The notes under the pieces were generated by a model. It did not search any database, was not told the origin of the DNA, and was given only the letters and a program-made list of their open reading frames with translations. A DNA stretch of 45,129 nt from Oscillospiraceae bacterium (lineage in GTDB: Bacteria; Bacillota; Clostridia; Oscillospirales; Ruminococcaceae). The position numbers were made by a program, and so were the translations under genes. The stretch covers positions 1 through 45,129 of the forward strand of contig JAIRZL010000016.1 of NCBI GenBank assembly GCA_031267245.1, in the 5' to 3' direction. Of this stretch, positions 8,351-18,533 are shown one piece after another (the stretch's first letter is position 1; each line of letters begins with the position of its first letter).

Positions 8351-8995
8351 CTAACAAATATCTCTGCGGTTAAACAGAACCAATCCGGCTGAGAGTGAAA
8401 CCGAAAGCCAGACTACGGTTACTTTAGGGACTACTGGCGCCATATCAGCAATGTCAATCAGCAAAAGGGAGAGAAGCGCACAAACCATCGAACCAACAAC
8501 ATTTCTTATTGTCTGCGATATAAAGGTACCCCCTACAGTTAGTACAAAAAACAGCAAAAATTCCCGCAAATAATGCCGGACCCAATTAATTTCGCTTGCA
8601 AACGCGAACTGAGAAATAAACGCTATCATAATCAAGTTGAGAGCTGTCACCACCAGGATAATTACTATGGCCGCAAAATAACAAATGCCCAACTTTGATA
8701 AATATACTTGCGTTTTAGTGTACCCTTTGGATATAACATTTTTTATCGTGCCTTGAGAAAATTCAGACGTGGTAAAAACGGCAATAAAAACAGCACAAAA
8801 AGCATACATTTCGAACCTATCCAAGAGAACATGGTACGGCATCCGCCATGGCAACTCATCAATAGGCCAGTTATTCCTTTCATACACCACACCTATCCAT
8901 ACACTAATGGCACAAATCATAACAAGTAAAAAACTAAACCAAAAGATTCTGGAACGAATCAACCTTTTGGTTTCATATTTAAGAAGCGCTGACAT
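8351..8995 (-). CDS. ABC-2 type transporter permease (peptide-resistance type), no adjacent ATPase
   Basis: LLKYE.KRL start, SEFSQGTIKNVISKGYTKTQVYLSK loop, about 6 hydrophobic segments, F.RRDI end; paralog of 16271..16972. Confidence 0.85.
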   Translation of the reverse strand: MSALLKYETKRLIRSRIFWFSFLLVMICAISVWIGVVYERNNWPIDELPWRMPYHVLLDRFEMYAFCAVFIAVFTTSEFSQGTIKNVISKGYTKTQVYLSKLGICYFAAIVIILVVTALNLIMIAFISQFAFASEINWVRHYLREFLLFFVLTVGGTFISQTIRNVVGSMVCALLSLLLIDIADMAPVVPKVTVVWLSVSLSAGLVLFNRRDIC

Positions 8996-9269: not shown

Positions 9270-10925
9270 TCAGCCACCAAGCTTGATCACCTTTTTTGCC
9301 CCTTCAAGCATCTTCAACTTATGTGTTAGCAGAATCACAACGCTTTTTTGCTTCATTTCATTTATAATTTCCATAACATCTTGAGAATTTGCATCATCCA
9401 ACGATGATGTTATTTCATCAAAAATATTAATCGGCGCATCCTTAAGATATGCTCTGACTATTGCCAATCTTTGCATTTCACCGCCAGAAAGATTAATTTT
9501 TTCGTTTATAATTGTATCGTATTTATCCGGCAAGCTTTCTATCTTGCTGTGTAAATTGAGCCGCTTACAAACCGCAATCAGCTTTGCATCTGAGATATCA
9601 TTTTGGTGTTGGTGGCCCAAAAGCAAGTTTTCACGAACAGACACATTAAATAGCTGTGTGCTTTGAGACACAAAGCTAATATTTAAACGCAGATCACACA
9701 AAGAAGTAGCCAATGATTCTCCGGGACGCACCAACACCTCCCCACCACAAGGCTCATAAAAACCCATCATTAGCTTGGCGATTGTGCTTTTTCCAATGCC
9801 AGAAGGACCAATTATCCCATAAAGCCCCACACCACAAAAATCGAAACTAAAATTATCCAAGATTCCCTGTTGACCATCGTACCCAAATGTTACATTTTTA
9901 AAAACAACAGACGGCGTTTTTTTTGTTTTTTGCGCATTTTTAGAAGGGACCATGCCTTCCGCAGGCAACTCAAAATATTCATGCAATCTTTTTAATACAG
10001 GAATAAATTGCCGATATGCCATGTTGCTGTTGATAAGCTCATGAATCGGGCCAAGCAACATTTGGAAATAGACCTCAAGCGCAACAACAGAGCCAATTGT
10101 CATCCAACCATTTAAAACACCACCAAAACCCAAACAATAAATCGTGGCAATAGCAAATATAACTATAGTGTTGCTTACACCATTGCATAAAGAAGCAAGT
10201 TTGGCATTTCTAATCCCCAAATTAAACAGCTTTTTAAGTGTGCAAAGATACTGCGAGCTCACCCTTTTTTCCGCCACAAATGCTTTAATGAGCTCGATAT
10301 TATCTATGTTTTGCTCAATCGTTGTGTAAAACCTATCATTTAAACTCAACGATTCTGAAGATATCTTTTCAAACTTTTCGCCAACACAAACATTAAACAC
10401 CGTATAGATCATTATGTAAAGAGTAAGCACAAAAGCAATAGATGGAGAAAGTAGAAACATTCCAACAATACTCATCAGAACACACACAGCGTTATTAACA
10501 ACCACAGCCCAAAATGAGGTTATAAACGAGCTCAGACTGCCACCATCATTGGCAATTCGCGAGATAATATCACCTTTTGTTGTTTTGTCAAAAAAACAAA
10601 GAGGAGAATTAATTACCCGTAAAAACAATCTACTCCTCACATCAAATTTGATGTTTTCAGAAATATACATAAAAAAATAATCTCTAAGGTAATTAAAAAT
10701 CGGCTGCAATAAGCATACAGCAAGGAATATTAACATACTTGGATACATTTCTGCAGTTGACTTGAACTTGGCAACATTATCTATCAAATGCTTAGAAAGA
10801 TATGGGGTTACAAAAACTGAAAAACTGCAAAAAACAGTCATCACAACCCCATAACACTCTTCCTTTTTATATTCCCTTAGAAGGGCAAATAAATATCTTG
10901 TAAATTTAGTTTTTCGTTTATTCAT
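9270..10925 (-). CDS. ABC exporter, fused permease/ATPase, without an N-terminal C39 peptidase; likely peptide exporter
   Basis: N-terminal TM domain, Walker A GPSGIGKST, signature LSGGEMQR, Walker B INIFDE, H-loop. Confidence 0.9.
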   Translation of the reverse strand: MNKRKTKFTRYLFALLREYKKEECYGVVMTVFCSFSVFVTPYLSKHLIDNVAKFKSTAEMYPSMLIFLAVCLLQPIFNYLRDYFFMYISENIKFDVRSRLFLRVINSPLCFFDKTTKGDIISRIANDGGSLSSFITSFWAVVVNNAVCVLMSIVGMFLLSPSIAFVLTLYIMIYTVFNVCVGEKFEKISSESLSLNDRFYTTIEQNIDNIELIKAFVAEKRVSSQYLCTLKKLFNLGIRNAKLASLCNGVSNTIVIFAIATIYCLGFGGVLNGWMTIGSVVALEVYFQMLLGPIHELINSNMAYRQFIPVLKRLHEYFELPAEGMVPSKNAQKTKKTPSVVFKNVTFGYDGQQGILDNFSFDFCGVGLYGIIGPSGIGKSTIAKLMMGFYEPCGGEVLVRPGESLATSLCDLRLNISFVSQSTQLFNVSVRENLLLGHQHQNDISDAKLIAVCKRLNLHSKIESLPDKYDTIINEKINLSGGEMQRLAIVRAYLKDAPINIFDEITSSLDDANSQDVMEIINEMKQKSVVILLTHKLKMLEGAKKVIKLGG

Positions 10926-11279
10926 CGGATCTCAACTTCTTCATAAATCTCCATAAACCTTGTTTTACATATAAAAAGGTACTGTGCTGAACTGTATGCG
11001 AAAGATGGTGGTCGCAACAACACTCATTCTTACAAGCATACCACAACCGTAAAAAAAACAACAACTTCAACATCCAATTCAGCAGGAAACATCGCATTTT
11101 TTAATGGCCATTAAGATGAAAGCCAAAAGTTGGCTTCCCAAAACAATCATTTCGAAAGGCACAGTTAGCTGCACCACGCCAAACAATTACAACTGCGCCA
11201 CCTTTCTACAACCTTCCCCTATCGCGCCGCACGCATAACAAAGCCACCTCTTCAGCCACCTCTTCCTAAACTTAACAAC

Positions 11280-11399
11280 TTACTTTTTTTGCTGAGCATA
11301 AAAAGTAATAATCACCGCACCCAACACAGCAATCGCTGCAATGACATATGGGATCATAAACACAATACCACTCTTCAATTCCACTAGACTTAACTTCAC
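11280..11399 (-). CDS. 39-aa single-pass membrane peptide MKLSLVELKSGIVFMIPYVIAAIAVLGAVIITFYAQQKK
   Basis: Manually translated; GTG start with RBS AAGGGAGG; one long hydrophobic stretch and a basic tail; co-oriented inside the RiPP locus. Confidence 0.65.
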   Translation of the reverse strand: MKLSLVELKSGIVFMIPYVIAAIAVLGAVIITFYAQQKK

Positions 11400-11600
11400 A
11401 ATCCAATAGCCTCCCTTCAAGCAATGCATTGGGAACACAGGCGAAAGGGGTCTATACCCAAACGAAAAACGAATCCACCCATGGGCCCCAATGCAAGATG
11501 GAACAACTACCCGCTTTTACTTACCTACTTTTTTGATTGCTTCACACGCGTTTTTTTACACTACTTTTAACAGTGCCCAATAAGCAGGGAATAATAACAC

Positions 11601-11693
11601 CTAATTCCTATTGCACTTTTGACAGCGCCAGATACAGTCAAGGGAATAATATTGCTCTTCAAATCTCTTTATAGGTTTAATTATGTACTTCAC
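11601..11693 (-). CDS. Cys-rich RiPP precursor P5: MKYIIKPIKRFEEQYYSLDCIWRCQKCNRN (30 aa)
   Basis: Manually translated; GTG start, RBS GAAAGGGGGG, TAG stop; paralog of P1-P4. Confidence 0.85.
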   Translation of the reverse strand: MKYIIKPIKRFEEQYYSLDCIWRCQKCNRN

Positions 11694-11906
11694 AATCAAT
11701 CCCCCCTTTCATTATCAAAACACTTACAGTACATTAATTTGCCCCACAAAAAACCGAAAAATAGCAAACTCACCATTACATTACAACAAACCAACCTACT
11801 TACTCTTAACTTGTTATCGCTTTCTTGATTGCCTCCTATCACACTTTTGCACACCCACCTATAAAAATCACCAACAAACACATTCGCAAGCACATTGCCA
11901 CAAAAC

Positions 11907-11999
11907 CTACTTCGCCTCACACTTTTGACAGTGCCAAATGCAGATACAGGAATAATATTGCTCTTCAAATCTCTTTATAGGTTTAATTATGTACTTCAC
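11907..11999 (-). CDS. Cys-rich RiPP precursor P4: MKYIIKPIKRFEEQYYSCICIWHCQKCEAK (30 aa)
   Basis: Manually translated; GTG start, RBS GAAAGGGGGG, TAG stop. Confidence 0.85.
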   Translation of the reverse strand: MKYIIKPIKRFEEQYYSCICIWHCQKCEAK

Positions 12000-12141
12000 A
12001 ATCAATCCCCCCTTTCATTATCAAAACACTTACAGTACATTAATTTGCCTCACAAAAAACCGAAAAATAGCAAACTCACCATTACATTACAACAAACCAA
12101 CCTACTTACTCTTAACTTGTTATCGCTTTCTTGATTGCTTT

Positions 12142-12237
12142 CTATCGTACTTTTAGACACTTCTGACAAAACCACCAACAGGTGGGGGTATAATGGCCTT
12201 CTTCAAATCTCTTTATAGGTTTAATTATGTACTTCAC
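12142..12237 (-). CDS. Cys-rich RiPP precursor P3: MKYIIKPIKRFEEGHYTPTCWWFCQKCLKVR (31 aa)
   Basis: Manually translated; GTG start, RBS GAAAGGGGGG, TAG stop. Confidence 0.85.
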   Translation of the reverse strand: MKYIIKPIKRFEEGHYTPTCWWFCQKCLKVR

Positions 12238-12312
12238 AATCAATCCCCCCTTTCATTATCAAAACACTTACAGTACATTAATTTGCCTCACAAAAAACGA
12301 AAAATAGCAAAC

Positions 12313-12453
12313 TCACCAATCTATATCAAAAAGATTGCATAAGGTAGGGCAGGGAGGAGCGTTGATACACTTAACACAGTAAATCCAACAGTCTCGTGGG
12401 CACCCTTCCGCCCTCGTCGCAAATACACCTCTAGGCCCTATTATGTACTTCAC
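12313..12453 (-). CDS. Cys-rich RiPP precursor P2: MKYIIGPRGVFATRAEGCPRDCWIYCVKCINAPPCPTLCNLFDIDW (46 aa)
   Basis: Manually translated; GTG start, RBS GAAAGGTGG, TGA stop; six Cys. Confidence 0.85.
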   Translation of the reverse strand: MKYIIGPRGVFATRAEGCPRDCWIYCVKCINAPPCPTLCNLFDIDW

Positions 12454-12549
12454 AATCAATCCACCTTTCATTATCAAACACCTTACAGTGGTCTTACTTG
12501 CCTCACAAAAAACAACAAAAAAAACATGAAAAATAGCGAACTCACCATA

Positions 12550-12633
12550 CTACAACAGCAAGCCATTACTTGCCATTGCCTCACCTACGCACCTCTCACA
12601 AAACCACCAACAAACACGTGAGTAATCATTCAA
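12550..12633 (-). pseudogene. Leaderless precursor relic (L)NDYSRVCWWFCERCVGEAMASNGLLL
   Basis: Open frame starting 2 nt after the P1 stop; contains CWWFCERC, nearly identical to the P3 core CWWFCQKC; no MKYI leader or well-spaced RBS. Confidence 0.6.
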
Positions 12634-12635
12634 AC

Positions 12636-12758
12636 CTAGTTACGTATACACCTTTGACAAAACCAACCACAGTTGGTGGGGCAACCTATACCATTGGGAA
12701 CGCAACCGTCTACCATTGGGGGCAAATACGCACCCCTAGGCCCCATTATATACTTCAT
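12636..12758 (-). CDS. Cys-rich RiPP precursor P1: MKYIMGPRGAYLPPMVDGCVPNGIGCPTNCGWFCQRCIRN (40 aa)
   Basis: Manually translated; ATG start, RBS AAAGGGGGTGA, TAG stop; first precursor downstream of the maturase. Confidence 0.85.
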   Translation of the reverse strand: MKYIMGPRGAYLPPMVDGCVPNGIGCPTNCGWFCQRCIRN

Positions 12759-12996
12759 AACTCATCACCCCCTTTGATTTAACTGCCAACTTGCCAAAAA
12801 CACAACTACTATTGGCGATTTTTTGCCGTTTTTTTATCAAGCGCAACAACACCCCCATTTCTTAAAGTTAGCTATTCCAATGACCACCAAAGTCTATATT
12901 CATCCTGCTTACTCACAACCATTCCTTAAATATATGAGTGGCGGGCAGCCGGGGCAAAACTTTTAAACCTTTCTGTAGAATCACAACTTTACTTTT

Positions 12997-14367
12997 TCAT
13001 TTGCCGGCATCCCCTCTCCTGCGAACCCCACAACAATCACCGCTTTGTTCTTCATTTTCGTCCCCTTGCATACAATACACATCATATCTTGTTTTTAAAA
13101 CATCTATTAGACCGTATCTCCATTTTTCGCAATCTGGTTTTTTATTTTTAAGCCCATTATACGGGCACCCACCCATGCAAATCGGCAGAACTTCACAACT
13201 AACACATTCGGGCTTATCAAACGGCGACCACAACAGGTATTCCAGTGCAACATTTGAAATCTTCTGGCTTTCACGCTCCTTCACATTACCAACACTCAGC
13301 TTTAAATTGCCAATATCATTCCAACATTTATACAAATTGCCTTTTGGATCAACAACAAAAGCAGTCAATGAATCTGCACAACAATAATTCGCCTTTATGC
13401 TAGGGTAATACGGGAAATCCGAAGCATTAAAACCCTTCTCTAATAAAATCTTTTGGCACTTATAGCTCTCATTAGCATATTCCTGCACTGTCAGGCAGGT
13501 ATCAGAAATTGATGAACACGCGCTTGTTGAATCCCTAACGTGCCCAAAACCTATATCGCATTTGTTAAGCTCATTTGCAATAAGGATATCAAGCAGTTCC
13601 TCCAAACCCACTAAATTTGTTTTATCTATATTTATTCTAATACCTACATGTATCCCTGCATTCTCAAATAGCTTGATATGTGATATGATAGTATCAAACG
13701 TTGGTTCACAACTATTTTTTAATTTCCTACGCAAATTATGCACTTGCGGCGGACCATCAACCGTAATTTGAACACCGGTAATCTTCGCCTTTTTAAATTG
13801 CGCAACGACATCATCATCAACCAAATAACCATTCGAAATCATATATGCGCTATATGGTGCCTTGTGTTTGTCACATATCTCAATTAATCTTTGCGACATT
13901 TCCCAAATTACGCTTTTAGCTAAAAGCGGCTCACCACCATACCAAGTGATAGATATTTGTTCTTTTTTCTCCGCCGTCTGTTCAACCCATTTGTAAATGG
14001 CATCAATCACCTCCACATCAATCATGCCACTCTGGTTATTTTCATAACAATAAGGACACGCAAAATTGCAAGCCAAAGTTGGGGCGATGGTAAGACCCAA
14101 ACCCTGCAAATTAAATTTTCCGCAATTGCTATTGAACTTAAGCAAACTCAATTCATTTGCATCGTCATCCAAAAGAAAAAAACCCATTTTCATGTCATCA
14201 ATAAGCTTTTTTGTTTTTTCATCCGCTTTATCATAATCTATGGAATTTATGTTTTGAATCACTCTGTTGAAATCCTCGTCAACTTCAGCAAATGAAGAAG
14301 TAAACCCATTAAAAGCCAAACTTTTACCACGATACTTGAAAAAAACATTGTACTTGGACGTTTTCAA
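12997..14367 (-). CDS. Radical SAM/SPASM-domain peptide maturase (Clo7bot-maturase-like)
   Basis: CNFACPYC radical SAM motif, ITWYGGEPLL, SPASM cysteines C..VVDPKGNLYKC...CVSCEVLPICMGGC...C; N-terminal K.SKYN extension; likely start is TTG at 14367 with RBS AAGGAG. Confidence 0.92.
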   Translation of the reverse strand: MKTSKYNVFFKYRGKSLAFNGFTSSFAEVDEDFNRVIQNINSIDYDKADEKTKKLIDDMKMGFFLLDDDANELSLLKFNSNCGKFNLQGLGLTIAPTLACNFACPYCYENNQSGMIDVEVIDAIYKWVEQTAEKKEQISITWYGGEPLLAKSVIWEMSQRLIEICDKHKAPYSAYMISNGYLVDDDVVAQFKKAKITGVQITVDGPPQVHNLRRKLKNSCEPTFDTIISHIKLFENAGIHVGIRINIDKTNLVGLEELLDILIANELNKCDIGFGHVRDSTSACSSISDTCLTVQEYANESYKCQKILLEKGFNASDFPYYPSIKANYCCADSLTAFVVDPKGNLYKCWNDIGNLKLSVGNVKERESQKISNVALEYLLWSPFDKPECVSCEVLPICMGGCPYNGLKNKKPDCEKWRYGLIDVLKTRYDVYCMQGDENEEQSGDCCGVRRRGDAGK

Positions 14368-14395: not shown

Positions 14396-14485
14396 ATCGC
14401 GAGTCTTTTGAAAGGATATCGCGAGTCTTTACGACTGTCAACCCACAATGCTTAGTTTCGACAAATAGTGTCAGGGTTTCGACAA
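14396..14485 (-). promoter_or_regulatory. Maturase promoter: TTGACA-17-TATCCT, 13-bp direct repeat operator, two Spo0A-box matches
   Basis: -35 at 14436-14441, -10 at 14413-14418; atcgcgagtcttt at 14396-14408 and 14418-14430; TGTCGAA at 14457-14463 and 14478-14484. Confidence 0.7.
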
Positions 14486-14638: not shown

Positions 14639-15462
14639 TCAGCGTCCACAGCACATTAATAAATCGCACAAGGCCATTCGTCTTGTCTTCGTCCTTTTGT
14701 CTGTTGCGTTATCGGCGGTCTGGAGCTGTTTATGCACTTGCGAAAGCATCGTTTCGAAATCGCCGAACCGCTTTTTGCCCAACCGCAATGTATTCCAGAC
14801 CGCTTGTGAGCGCTGCTTGATGGCACACGTCTTGAAGCCTATTTGTAGGAGCAACAAATGAATGTAGGAGCAACAAAAACGCCGGAAGCCGTCACCTTAT
14901 ACTTGCCGCGCAATTCCGCGAAGAGAGCGACGTTTTGCAGCACCTCGACATACAGTCCCTCGGTGAGTAGGAACATCACGGCGAAGTCCGTGGTCTTTGC
15001 CGGCACGATATCACGATACATTTCTCATAGATGTCCTTGGCAAACACCCGAATCTTGGCATAGAGCGACTTGCGGGCTTCTTCGATTGCTGACTTGCCCT
15101 TTCGCCTCGAGCAGGCGGGGCGTAGTCTGCAATAGAACAAGCTCTAGTGCAGTAACATCCGTTAGGCGCACCAGCCAGATTTGATGCTGCGGAAAAATAT
15201 CGCGCTGAGATCTGGAGTTGCAAGTGCTGTAATTGCAACGATTGTTGCAATTACAGCACTTATTAAAAATTAACTGGTAATTTTTAATATATTGCGATAT
15301 GATTGGGGGTGGAAATGTAAACCTACTCAAGGGAAACTTGGTGTCGATAGGCAGCCAGCGCGGGGCATCGCCGTTGCCTGGCAGCTTGATGGCGAATTCC
15401 ACCCGCTTGCCGCCTTGGATTTCGACATTACTTGTCCCATTGCAGCCGATATGGCTTTTCAA
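14639..15462 (-). pseudogene. rmuC: Fragmented 3' half of DNA recombination protein RmuC
   Basis: Colinear fragments in different frames: RVEFAIKLPG..WLPIDTKFPL / RLLEA / AIEEARKSLYAKIRVFAKDIYEK / KTTDFAVMFLLTEGLYVEVL / LQIGFKTCAIKQRSQAVW..KQLQTA; frameshifts at small tandem duplications. Confidence 0.85.
15222..15289. repeat. Two back-to-back perfect inverted repeats (18-bp and 12-bp arms) inside an insertion in rmuC
   Basis: aagtgctgtaattgcaac-gatt-gttgcaattacagcactt (15222-15261); tattaaaaatta-actgg-taatttttaata (15261-15289). Confidence 0.9.
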
Positions 15463-15557: not shown

Positions 15558-16268
15558 ATGTTTGCAATAAGGACGCAAAACTTGAGCAAACACTATCGCG
15601 GGAGTGCAGTTGTTGATTCAGTGAATTTATGTGTTCAAAAGGGAGAAAGCTATGGTCTTGTTGGGGCAAACGGCGCAGGCAAAACCACATTAATGAAACT
15701 TATTGTGGGGTTGGCTGAGGCTTCATCTGGCAGCGTGGAATTATTTGGTTCAACAGATGGTCGTCAACGAAATAAAATCGGGTGCCTTATTGAAATACCT
15801 GGCCTTTTTATCGATATGACTGCAGAACAACATCTTGATACCACGCTGGCGCTTTTGCCCCCAAATCCGCGGTTTGGTATCCGTGAGGTTCTTGCGATGG
15901 TTGGTTTGGAAGATACGCGTAAAAAGCCGGTAAAGAAATTCTCTCTTGGTATGAAGCAACGTTTAGGTATTGCAACAGCGTTACTTGGTTCACCAGAACT
16001 GTTAATATTGGATGAGCCTGTTAATGGTTTGGATCCGATTGGAATTAGAGAAATGAGTGAATTGTTTGTAAGGCTGAGACAAGAATATGGCATGACGATG
16101 TTGATATCGAGCCATCTGTTAACAGAGCTAGCCAAGGTGGTTTCGTGTTATGGTGTGGTTGCAAACGGTAAGTTGCTTGCTGAATTGCGGCAAGAAGAAC
16201 TACAGCAACTTTCAGTAACAGCAGATGGTGTGGAAGACCATATTATTACGCTTATGGAAGGAAATTAG
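15558..16268 (+). CDS. ABC transporter ATP-binding protein (BcrA/lantibiotic-immunity-like)
   Basis: GANGAGKTT, FSLGMKQRLGIA, LILDEPVNGLDP, LISSH; RBS GAGGAG. Confidence 0.92.
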   Translation: MFAIRTQNLSKHYRGSAVVDSVNLCVQKGESYGLVGANGAGKTTLMKLIVGLAEASSGSVELFGSTDGRQRNKIGCLIEIPGLFIDMTAEQHLDTTLALLPPNPRFGIREVLAMVGLEDTRKKPVKKFSLGMKQRLGIATALLGSPELLILDEPVNGLDPIGIREMSELFVRLRQEYGMTMLISSHLLTELAKVVSCYGVVANGKLLAELRQEELQQLSVTADGVEDHIITLMEGN

Positions 16269-16270
16269 TT

Positions 16271-16972
16271 ATGTCAAAGCTTCTTAGGTATGAAGCCAAA
16301 AGGTTAATTCGTTCCAAAAGTTTTTGGATTAGTCTTTTTGCTGCTGTGATTTTTGCCATTCAGTCATGGTGGTATAGATGGGAAATCTTTACGCCGGATT
16401 TCGTTGAGGAGCAGTGCGATGTTTTGGGTCGTGGATCTGATGTATGTTTAATTTGTGTTTTGTTTGCTAGTGTTTTTTTTGCGTCTGAGTTTTCTCAAGG
16501 CACGATAAAAAATGTTATATCCAAAGGGTATACTAAAGCTCAAGTATATTTATCAAAGTTTCTCCTTTGCTGTGTTGCCGTGATAGCGATTAGCCTGGTG
16601 GTGACAGCTCTCAATATATCAGTTGCTTGTTACCTTGGCCTGCTTACTTGCGGGTTTTGGATCTGCCACTGTTTCGTTAGGCTTTTATTGTTTCTTGCTC
16701 TAACATCACTTGCTACATTTATAACGATGACAATACAAAACGTTACTGCTGCGGTGATTGTGAATTTGGTTCATTTTTACGTGCTGCCAGATTTGTTAAG
16801 TATCCTTGTAAGTGAGAGGGTCAGTGGGTATATGCTCCCGCCAGTATCTGGTAGTTTTGATGGTCGTTCTCCTCCGGAAGCGCTTTTGCGTCCAATGGTA
16901 GTATGTATATTGTGGATTGTTGTTACACTCGCGGGTGGCTTGGCGATATTTAAACGCCGAGATGTTTGCTAG
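16271..16972 (+). CDS. ABC-2 type transporter permease
   Basis: Directly follows the ATPase; SEFSQGTIKNVISKG loop; multiple TM segments; FKRRDV end. Confidence 0.88.
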   Translation: MSKLLRYEAKRLIRSKSFWISLFAAVIFAIQSWWYRWEIFTPDFVEEQCDVLGRGSDVCLICVLFASVFFASEFSQGTIKNVISKGYTKAQVYLSKFLLCCVAVIAISLVVTALNISVACYLGLLTCGFWICHCFVRLLLFLALTSLATFITMTIQNVTAAVIVNLVHFYVLPDLLSILVSERVSGYMLPPVSGSFDGRSPPEALLRPMVVCILWIVVTLAGGLAIFKRRDVC

Positions 16973-17382: not shown

Positions 17383-17458
17383 GCTGGTGTAGCTCAGTTG
17401 GTAGAGCAGCTGATTTGTAATCAGCAGGTCAGGGGTTCGAATCCGTTCACCAGCTCCA
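17383..17458 (+). tRNA. tRNA-Thr (TGT)
   Basis: 76-nt cloverleaf, anticodon arm gctga-tt-TGT-aa-tcagc, GGTTCGAATCC T-loop, encoded CCA. Confidence 0.95.
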
Positions 17459-17465
17459 GTTTTTT

Positions 17466-17550
<85 letters not shown>

Positions 17551-17563
17551 TATTTTAATATTT

Positions 17564-17612
17564 ATCCGCAGGGAAATGATAGATGGTTCCACTGCGGATT
17601 TTTTGTTTTTTC
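17564..17612 (+). terminator. Probable intrinsic terminator after the tRNAs
   Basis: atccgcag...ctgcggat stem followed by a T-run. Confidence 0.65.
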
Positions 17613-18144
17613 TGAAATTTCCTGGAATGTCGCTAGCTGGACGTGAAGTACAGCCCTCCGCGAAGGCACGGAACATTGCCCTTTGTTATCTGATTTGCCT
17701 CCATAGAAACTTTTAACCTTATCAATGGGATCAAGCTTAACGCGGTTCAACTTAAACCTTATCAAGATTTAGATAGTTCTTGTGGGAAACCACAGAGGCT
17801 TTTTTATTGACTGCGCCCCGACAAGCCCGCATTCGTAGACAAGCGCAACAACAATCAAATCCCACTAAACAAGCACAACACCAGCTCGTCAAAATGTCAA
17901 GCAAAATCGCAAATCTAATGAGAAAAACGAGGCAAACCCACGCCAGAGAGCCACCTGAAGCACTACCCAAACGAAGCCTTACGGTATTTCAAACCCCTTA
18001 CCACCTTACAAACGCCCATAACAAACTGTCCAGGATACCCGCCACTTTGCCGAACCCCGCAAAACCGCTATATTGTTAGCTTTTTTGAGCAAACAAAAAC
18101 CATCTACCGACACTCAATGAGTTATCAATAGATGGTAGTTGATT

Positions 18145-18533
18145 TGGTGGAGAAGAGGGGAATCGAACCCCTGTCCGAAGACTCACGCGCACAAAACTCT
18201 CCGGGTGCAGTTTGTTTTCGTTATTCATGCAACAGCGCGCCAACAAACAAAAAACACTGCTGCAATATCCTCTAATTCATCAACCGGGTCGAGAAAGCTC
18301 CCGGGCAACGTTCACCACTAAATGACGTTCAAACCAGGGCATGGTAAACCTGGCCAAACGGATGGCTGCTTACGCAGCGATGGCATCTGCTCCAGAGAAA
18401 TCAAGAGTTATAACACCATCATCATCTTTACCTTTACTACCTGCGTTTAAAACTTGTTTTTTGATATTTAAAGAGCTCGCACTCTACCCGCTATTCATAC
18501 GCTAAAAATCCCCGTCGAAACCTTTGCTTCCCC
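18145..18533 (-). ncRNA. ssrA: tmRNA; tag frame 18444-18370 encodes AGSKGKDDDGVITLDFSGADAIAA
   Basis: 5' GGGGAAGCAAAGGTTTCGACGGG, 3' GGTTCGATTCCCCTCTTCTCCACCA, TTAAAC-GCA resume context, tag ending in AA; directly downstream of smpB. Confidence 0.95.

Follow-up and report, generated by a model that had tools for sequence, protein, structure and literature searches.

The stretch analysed here (the window) comprised positions 1 to 45,129 of contig JAIRZL010000016.1 from the Oscillospiraceae bacterium assembly GCA_031267245.1, and possessed, between positions 9270 and 14367, a gene cluster for peptides that are made on ribosomes and then modified after translation (RiPPs). The cluster encoded a radical S-adenosylmethionine (SAM)/SPASM maturase with a RiPP recognition element (RRE)-like domain, five small precursors (P1 to P5) and an ATP-binding cassette (ABC) exporter. 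The genome of the window is labelled G000, related genomes are labelled G001-G003, G032, G134, G257 and G350, and the prefixes C and L designate contigs and loci. The genes of the cluster were the following:

12997..14367, minus strand: radical SAM/SPASM peptide maturase, intact, 456 aa, N-terminal RRE-like domain, Clo7bot-type
12636..12758, minus strand: precursor P1, ATG start, 40 aa, 5 Cys, divergent leader, lining up with the family leader and CxxxC, no TIGR04333 match
12313..12453, minus strand: precursor P2, GTG start, 46 aa, 6 Cys, divergent leader, no NCBIfam match
12142..12237, minus strand: precursor P3, GTG start, 31 aa, 3 Cys, TIGR04333 21.8 bits, rank 2 with the relatives' profile
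11907..11999, minus strand: precursor P4, GTG start, 30 aa, 4 Cys, TIGR04333 17.9 bits, rank 1 with the relatives' profile
11601..11693, minus strand: precursor P5, GTG start, 30 aa, 3 Cys, TIGR04333 20.5 bits, recent P4 duplicate with altered core
9270..10925, minus strand: ABC exporter (permease and ATPase), intact, 551 aa

The five precursor genes lay in tandem on the minus strand, flanked by the maturase and exporter genes, and a purine-rich Shine-Dalgarno sequence (AAAGGGGGTG, AAAGGTGG or AAAGGGGGG) was located a few bases 5' of every start. The original prediction had placed five co-oriented small open reading frames (ORFs) with ribosome binding sites (RBSs) between these two genes, and all five were confirmed as given there. 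Genome-wide, the CxxxCxxC motif was encoded by 7 of 376 RBS-led ORFs of 25-60 codons (the five array genes, one internal P1 start and one ORF elsewhere), and the CxxxCxxC ORFs of the array are not a product of chance. A profile built solely from 24 precursors of relatives was run against 31,637 six-frame pieces of G000, where P4, P3 and P5 were the top three matches (E 0.006-0.015) and P1 and P2 ranked outside the top 25. Its origin as a RiPP cluster is almost beyond doubt.

Maturase and precursor cores

The maturase scored 595.9 bits against TIGR04334, 4 bits short of the cut-off of 600, while the next family reached 282.5 bits. Its nearest database protein (P0003, 68% identical, named by NCBI) and P0020 (53%) were both named Clo7bot maturase. 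The G002 orthologue passed TIGR04334 at 604.7 bits and the G003 precursors passed the TIGR04333 precursor cut-off of 31 bits (31-40 bits), whereas P3-P5 stayed below it (17.9-21.8 bits). As both formal Clo7bot cut-offs were missed, the system is not filed as a formal member; on family scores and phylogeny, the maturase is best classed as a Clo7bot orthologue and the system as a divergent offshoot of the Clo7bot family. The best-scoring family, the array and the exporter thus bear out the original reading of a multi-precursor radical SAM/SPASM RiPP system resembling Clo7bot, for which the profile comparison agreed in the best family but neither in the cut-offs nor in P1 and P2. Describing the system as hidden was an overstatement, its type being a named family.

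In a maturase tree of 27 rows, from which the out-of-frame row L113_x was left out, the three congener maturases formed a clade (100/99), and the G000 branch (0.23) was not lengthened compared with those of its congeners (0.24 and 0.28). Matches in G350, G154 and G024 and a second one in G134 were rejected as distant paralogues rather than orthologues (309-381 bits, long branches), and viral contigs had distant homologues only (21-35% identity).

The radical SAM CxxxCxxC motif corresponded to C100/104/107, and the seven SPASM cysteines were invariant in all 66 homologues. The predicted structure (predicted local distance difference test score, pLDDT, 91.7) possessed the fused RRE, radical SAM and SPASM fold of ranthipeptide/sactipeptide synthases, with CteB as the top match both by Foldseek and by sequence. 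The VIA alignment to CteB extended over residues 4-431 and so covered the N-terminal RRE region (Z about 27.5-27.6, root-mean-square deviation 5.0, 399 aligned), and CteB and TigE were the top matches that also covered the N-terminal domain. The maturase cysteines followed the seven-Cys pattern of CteB, and the additional AuxI cysteine of anSME had no counterpart. For CteB, an open AuxI iron site and leader binding by the RRE are described in the accessible part of PMC8326336. Since the maturase shares the seven-Cys pattern of CteB without the extra anSME cysteine, an open iron site is tentatively favoured, and with it, from the CteB-like fold and cysteines, we infer thioether formation as in CteB.

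The precursors varied mainly in their cores. The P4 and P5 units formed a 259-nt repeat of 92% identity with mismatches clustered in the core, where 13 of 54 bases differed, compared to 3 of 181 in spacer and leader (Fisher p = 4.6e-7). Six codons altered the residue, two motif Cys codons changed silently, and CxxxCxxC was kept. Between P3 and P4, mismatches numbered 29 of 54 in the core and 1 of 99 outside it. Recent duplicates retained the reading frame, the stop position and the motif cysteines, and their non-coding spacer was 98% identical. This pattern of constant leader and variable core agrees with selection that diversifies the cores, or with leaders homogenised by gene conversion; both would keep a constant handle with a variable payload. 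Three further segments resembled cores without leaders, and a fourth element was uncertain:

12583..12612, minus strand: leaderless decayed core copy (P1/P3-like), DNA score reached by 0/300 shuffles against P1 and against P3
11836..11876, minus strand: leaderless decayed core copy (P3-like), DNA score reached by 0/300 shuffles
11559..11596, minus strand: leaderless decayed core copy (P4/P5-like), DNA score reached by 0/300 shuffles against P4 and against P5
11272..11424, minus strand: uncertain element, possibly a broken sixth precursor, with an RBS-led 43-codon hydrophobic ORF (11280-11411) overlapping a Cys-rich frame

Taken as decayed copies, the three leaderless remnants show birth and death of precursor copies. 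A sixth precursor at 11272-11424 was not supported, as the element reached no significance against P1-P5 DNA, the relatives' profile or NCBIfam. A diversity-generating retroelement was also rejected: the differences between cores and remnants involved all bases, and the reverse transcriptase was encoded on another contig without an adenine-specific repeat. This reverse transcriptase (C22:5010-6326, beside a 158-nt repeat of 92% identity) is common to G000 and G002 (L021:5125-6426; 51% identical), and in G002 it sits after the peptide cluster.

The window peptides were compared with 51 precursors of relatives, 24 of them encoded in G002, G003, G032 and G134 and the other 27 in metagenomic loci (a leader pattern, which misses some, gave 32, less 2 unlike precursors and 3 duplicates). 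Among these relatives, 47 possessed CxxxC, 46 a [YF]C cysteine after the leader and 17 the exact CxxxCxxC spacing, while Trp occurred in 8 and fell inside CxxxC in a single one. All five window peptides had Trp inside CxxxC and none had the [YF]C cysteine. Trp accounted for 7 of 107 core residues in the window peptides and 6 of 1504 in relatives, the five window cores being paralogues and not independent. Judged from these alignments, the conserved substrate feature is Cys spacing and not aromatics. Each genome encoded several divergent cores, and cores were unrelated between congeners.

Genomic context, host and distribution

The exporter was 60% identical to that of the G002 cluster, and no peptidase domain was seen in it, the best NCBIfam matches beginning past the peptidase region of the models. 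Metagenomic loci with a maturase at at least 42% identity numbered 20 of 80 fetched (one further partial match was excluded, and several loci were short or near-duplicates); they encoded an exporter (15 loci), a GNAT (14), a zinc peptidase (10) or an AMP ligase (5). The G002 and G003 clusters possessed a GNAT and an AMP-ligase gene, those of G002 and G134 a peptidase, and that of G134 also a methyltransferase. Searches of G000 (89% complete) with the relatives' queries detected no GNAT, peptidase or AMP ligase. Given this difference in tailoring genes, acylated or acetylated products are likely in the relatives, and a plainer one is likely in G000. At the position of the relatives' GNAT, one further element was detected:

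10918..11160, minus strand: possible GNAT remnant, top two genome-wide matches of the congener GNAT DNA profile, E 0.15 and 0.28

Eight of 12 residues of this putative remnant matched the C-terminus of the G003 GNAT. The score of its whole-length DNA alignment was reached by 70-151 of 300 shuffles, and broad protein and DNA profiles gave no match at the site. The evidence for a GNAT remnant before the exporter is suggestive only, and a pseudogene is not established.

Several related loci differed in content. The Clo7bot-type cluster of G134 (L034:8833-11516) encoded six precursors, a GIN-domain protein and the methyltransferase, of which G000 has a homologue on contig C4, and this 0.9 Mb genome possessed a second, different radical SAM cluster (L035:9526-13420) with a 37-aa CC-containing precursor, an AMP ligase and a GNAT. 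In G003, an extra 56-aa Cys-containing ORF unlike the array peptides followed the AMP ligase (L022:8173-8343). Three neighbouring radical SAM genes were located in G350 (L037:105-4295), a 0.8 Mb translocase-bearing genome.

The G000 genome comprised 873,803 bases (89% complete, 0.05% contaminated, GC 46.7%) and encoded an ATP/ADP translocase (PF03219, 506 bits) with clostridial proteins as closest homologues, located at the rplM-rpsI locus as in G002 and on a contig of typical composition. In a family sample of 401 genomes, the translocase was present in six, of which four, all of 0.7-0.9 Mb, possessed the orthologous maturase (576-605 bits); none of the 395 translocase-negative genomes did. 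Background frequencies of the orthologous maturase were 2/250 in the order and 2/398 in the class (2 genomes unscored). G001, G257 and G350 yielded no orthologous maturase in these searches. The four carrier genomes belonged to two genera and their enzymes to one 11-row subclade (98/95), together with seven unplaced proteins; given this kinship, they may represent a single gain. Congener maturases were 67-68% identical, compared to 64-67% for Obg, a divergence consistent with vertical descent. This reading is qualified by the cluster neighbours, which differed in each genome, and by the GC content of the cluster (0.36-0.38), below that of the genome (0.467).

By analogy with known lineages, the host is a probable intracellular energy parasite. 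Energy-parasitic Clostridia are described in the accessible parts of 10.1101/2023.07.03.547156 (the small-genome Ca. Improbicoccus clade) and 10.1101/2025.07.29.667580, and G000 shares with the Ca. Improbicoccus clade a genome near 1 Mb (0.86-1.4 Mb in the clade), an ATP/ADP translocase and an enolase that was not found. The accessible main text of the former is silent on radical SAM, bacteriocin and RiPP genes and describes no function by which its parasites benefit their hosts, and that of the latter mentions neither RiPPs nor radical SAM enzymes. An additional paralogue of the rotary ATPases, scoring about 190-214 bits on atpD, was encoded in all five small genomes (G000, C58:29014-30210; G001, G002, G003 and G134) and may represent a V-type ATPase or one of flagellar/type III export. 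G000 also kept a SCIFF maturase (C9, L025:1048-2406; TIGR03974, 605 bits); a SCIFF precursor was not found in G000 and was present in G001, G002, G003 and G134.

The flanks of the cluster contained the following features:

14413..14441, minus strand: sigma70-like promoter match 5' of the maturase, 10/12 consensus (region with 15 matches vs 18.9 in shuffles)
8351..8995, minus strand: ABC-2 permease (PF12730), inverted paralogue of 16271-16972 with 74% DNA identity over 375 nt, cluster link uncertain
15558..16972, plus strand: LanF/LanE-like ABC ATPase and permease (TIGR03740, 217 bits vs a cut-off of 309.75; PF12730)

Promoter and terminator counts were at chance level, and no Rfam families were found in the spacers. 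The cluster is flanked by an inverted duplicate made up of the two ABC-2 permeases. The LanF/LanE-like transporter is a possible self-protection system, with an uncertain link to the cluster, and a search with its permease gave no match in five related genomes. A dispersed repeat of about 180 nt at 15132-15311, with an 18-bp perfect hairpin (15222-15261), overlapped an RmuC-like fragment and had copies of 74-80% identity on contigs C4, C59 and C42. Genes for tRNA-Thr, tRNA-Tyr and tmRNA were located at 17383-18533, just past the right flank of the cluster, and no att-like direct repeat bounding an island was found.

Proposed product and comparison with known systems

Leader-guided thioether cyclisation of the five cores, followed by export and an antagonistic role, is the reading that we hold with a little more belief than doubt, and we infer every chemical and functional step of it. 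The N-terminal RRE of the maturase would bind the MKYIxxP leader, as in CteB-CteA. Abstraction by a SAM-derived radical would then, with the three-cysteine auxiliary cluster, form Cys-S-C bonds (about -2 Da each), so that core cysteines would be joined to nearby residues as thioether rings. Some protease would cut off the 13-15-residue leader, no dedicated peptidase having been found, and the products would carry no acyl group, in contrast to the predicted products of relatives in which GNAT and AMP ligase persist. The ABC exporter may secrete this small peptide set, which would likely act on competing microbes; if the host is an intracellular energy parasite, its targets may be bacteria sharing the same host cell or habitat. 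The array itself would have evolved through duplication, core change and decay.

Several observations weigh against parts of this reading. P1 and P2 had divergent leaders and no match to TIGR04333, which leaves the processing of all five peptides by one enzyme, as originally proposed, a conjecture. In the VIA comparison, anSME (Z 29.1 over residues 88-434) was about level with CteB (27.6 over residues 4-429), and the residues in proximity to the catalytic site (Y108/Y143/I177/T202/W349/N350) differed from those of CteB (F/F/T/S/H/Q) at all six positions, so that the chemistry is not fixed by homology. Two more nearly invariant cysteines (C284, 65/66; C291, 64/66), along with C330 (54/66), would be able to occupy the AuxI site, and no conserved acceptor residue such as that of CxxxD was evident. 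The antagonistic role is argued by analogy and from an immunity-like transporter, whose permease was not found in relatives. As for the parasitic host, G000 encoded PK (as a contig-edge fragment only), PGK and an F-type ATPase, and its GC content of 46.7% lies outside the 30-39% given for the Ca. Improbicoccus clade in the accessible part of its description. Enolase was found in none of the five small genomes but was also missing in 20 of 41 relatives, and its loss was rejected as a parasite marker because it does not discriminate. The tailoring genes not found in G000 and the remnants also fit decay of the cluster.

The same pathway could carry another chemistry, with Trp cross-linked (Cys-S to Trp, or a Trp C-C cyclophane) and leftover cysteines forming disulfides. 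The placement of Trp inside CxxxC in all five peptides but in 1 of 51 relatives, the absence from all five of the [YF]C cysteine common in the family, and the departure of the active-site-proximal residues from CteB would agree with it. These six residues are, however, the family consensus; as the family substrates are mostly Trp-free, nothing in the enzyme indicates a switch. Models of cyclophane (triceptide-type) synthases scored far below their cut-offs (GrrM/OscB 67.2 vs 310 bits, YhhB 67.1 vs 445, AmcB 59.7 vs 425), and the five Trp-bearing cores count as one paralogous group, all of which makes Trp cross-links unlikely. It is highly unlikely that the peptides are metal- or Fe-S-binding mini-proteins using CxxxCxxC as a ligand set instead of as cross-link donors: the cysteines of all five are spaced as in the radical SAM cluster motif, but this holds for only a third of the relatives' precursors (17/51), and the combination of an RRE-bearing maturase, an exporter and several copies with hypervariable cores suits RiPP logic.

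A role of the products as signals, for density sensing or host-stage cues, in place of weapons also seems improbable. SCIFF ranthipeptides are linked with quorum sensing in Clostridia in the title of one paper, and no clear dedicated immunity gene was conserved across relatives. The several divergent cores of each genome, which bear no relation to those of congeners, nevertheless accord more with an arms race than with a single signal; the cluster contained neither a sensor kinase nor a regulator, and the SCIFF maturase of G000 is a separate gene. Decay of the cluster in a shrinking genome, such that the mature product is no longer made, is distinctly unlikely. The GNAT, peptidase and AMP ligase common in relatives were not found in G000, remnants of three cores and perhaps of a GNAT accompany the array, and two related genomes (G001 and G257) appeared to be without the maturase. 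Yet both the maturase and the exporter have their full length and every catalytic motif, the maturase branch is not lengthened, the recent duplicates keep frame, stop position, motif cysteines and a 98% identical spacer, and the missing 11% of the genome means that accessory genes could sit elsewhere.

Beyond thioether cyclisation and export, a broader scenario, which we regard as doubtful, would have ATP-importing intracellular Clostridia of 0.7-0.9 Mb keep a rapidly diversifying radical SAM peptide arsenal since their common ancestor, exported inside a eukaryotic host cell against co-resident bacteria or the host; G000 would have moved to compact macrocycles with Trp in the ring, where Cys and Trp may be cross-linked. 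Genomes below 1 Mb that import ATP usually lose secondary metabolism. An iron-sulfur-dependent peptide pathway with diversifying cores was present in four of the six, which suggests that selection maintains it for competition or for interaction with a host. The system type is already named; what is new is a minimal variant rich in Trp and that miniature genomes with a translocase have kept it. While the RiPP reading of the original prediction and its five ORFs stood, it had passed over this reduced translocase-bearing host, the hypervariable Trp-rich cores and the missing tailoring genes, along with the three leaderless core remnants, the possible sixth copy and the possible GNAT remnant.

As originally stated, no characterised Clo7bot product was found in the literature searched, nor a reaction. 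No papers on Clo7bot, TIGR04333 or TIGR04334 were found there; most subscription journals lie outside the literature covered, and a characterisation could exist. No Clo7bot-type precursor matched in the spreadsheet of PMC10288494, and the accessible part of PMC10114670 added nothing on the family. With one enzyme and five substrates of 30-46 residues and three to six Cys, from an uncultured organism, the window system offers the simplest test case.

The closest known system is Clo7bot (TIGR04334/TIGR04333), with which the window shares an orthologous maturase, the MKYIxxP..F.EG leader, a tandem multi-precursor array, CxxxC spacing and a co-encoded ABC exporter. Clo7bot systems are defined by several tandem Cys-rich precursors beside the maturase, with peptides of about 34-53 aa and 4-7 Cys. 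The five window precursors form such an array, and P1 and P2 fit these ranges, whereas P3-P5 have 30-31 aa with 3, 4 and 3 Cys. The window system further differs in scoring under both cut-offs, in its cores (3-6 Cys, Trp inside CxxxC, no [YF]C cysteine), in its array downstream of the maturase (upstream in the high-scoring loci L130 and L131 and in L038), in having no detected GNAT, zinc peptidase or AMP ligase, and in a host genome below 1 Mb.

With CteA/CteB (SCIFF, thermocellin) and PapA/PapB, it has in common the RRE, radical SAM and seven-Cys SPASM architecture, a Cys-rich precursor and the best structural match. Identity to CteB is 16-18%, the six proximity residues all differ, and the window peptides have no CxxxD motif; SCIFF systems have a single conserved precursor in contrast to the five variable ones of the window, and G000 encodes its own SCIFF maturase elsewhere. 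Cyanobactin and prochlorosin libraries likewise combine one promiscuous maturase with a constant leader and hypervariable multi-copy cores, but with other enzymes and chemistry, and their cores come as cassettes or dozens of dispersed genes, compared to five tandem copies in the window.

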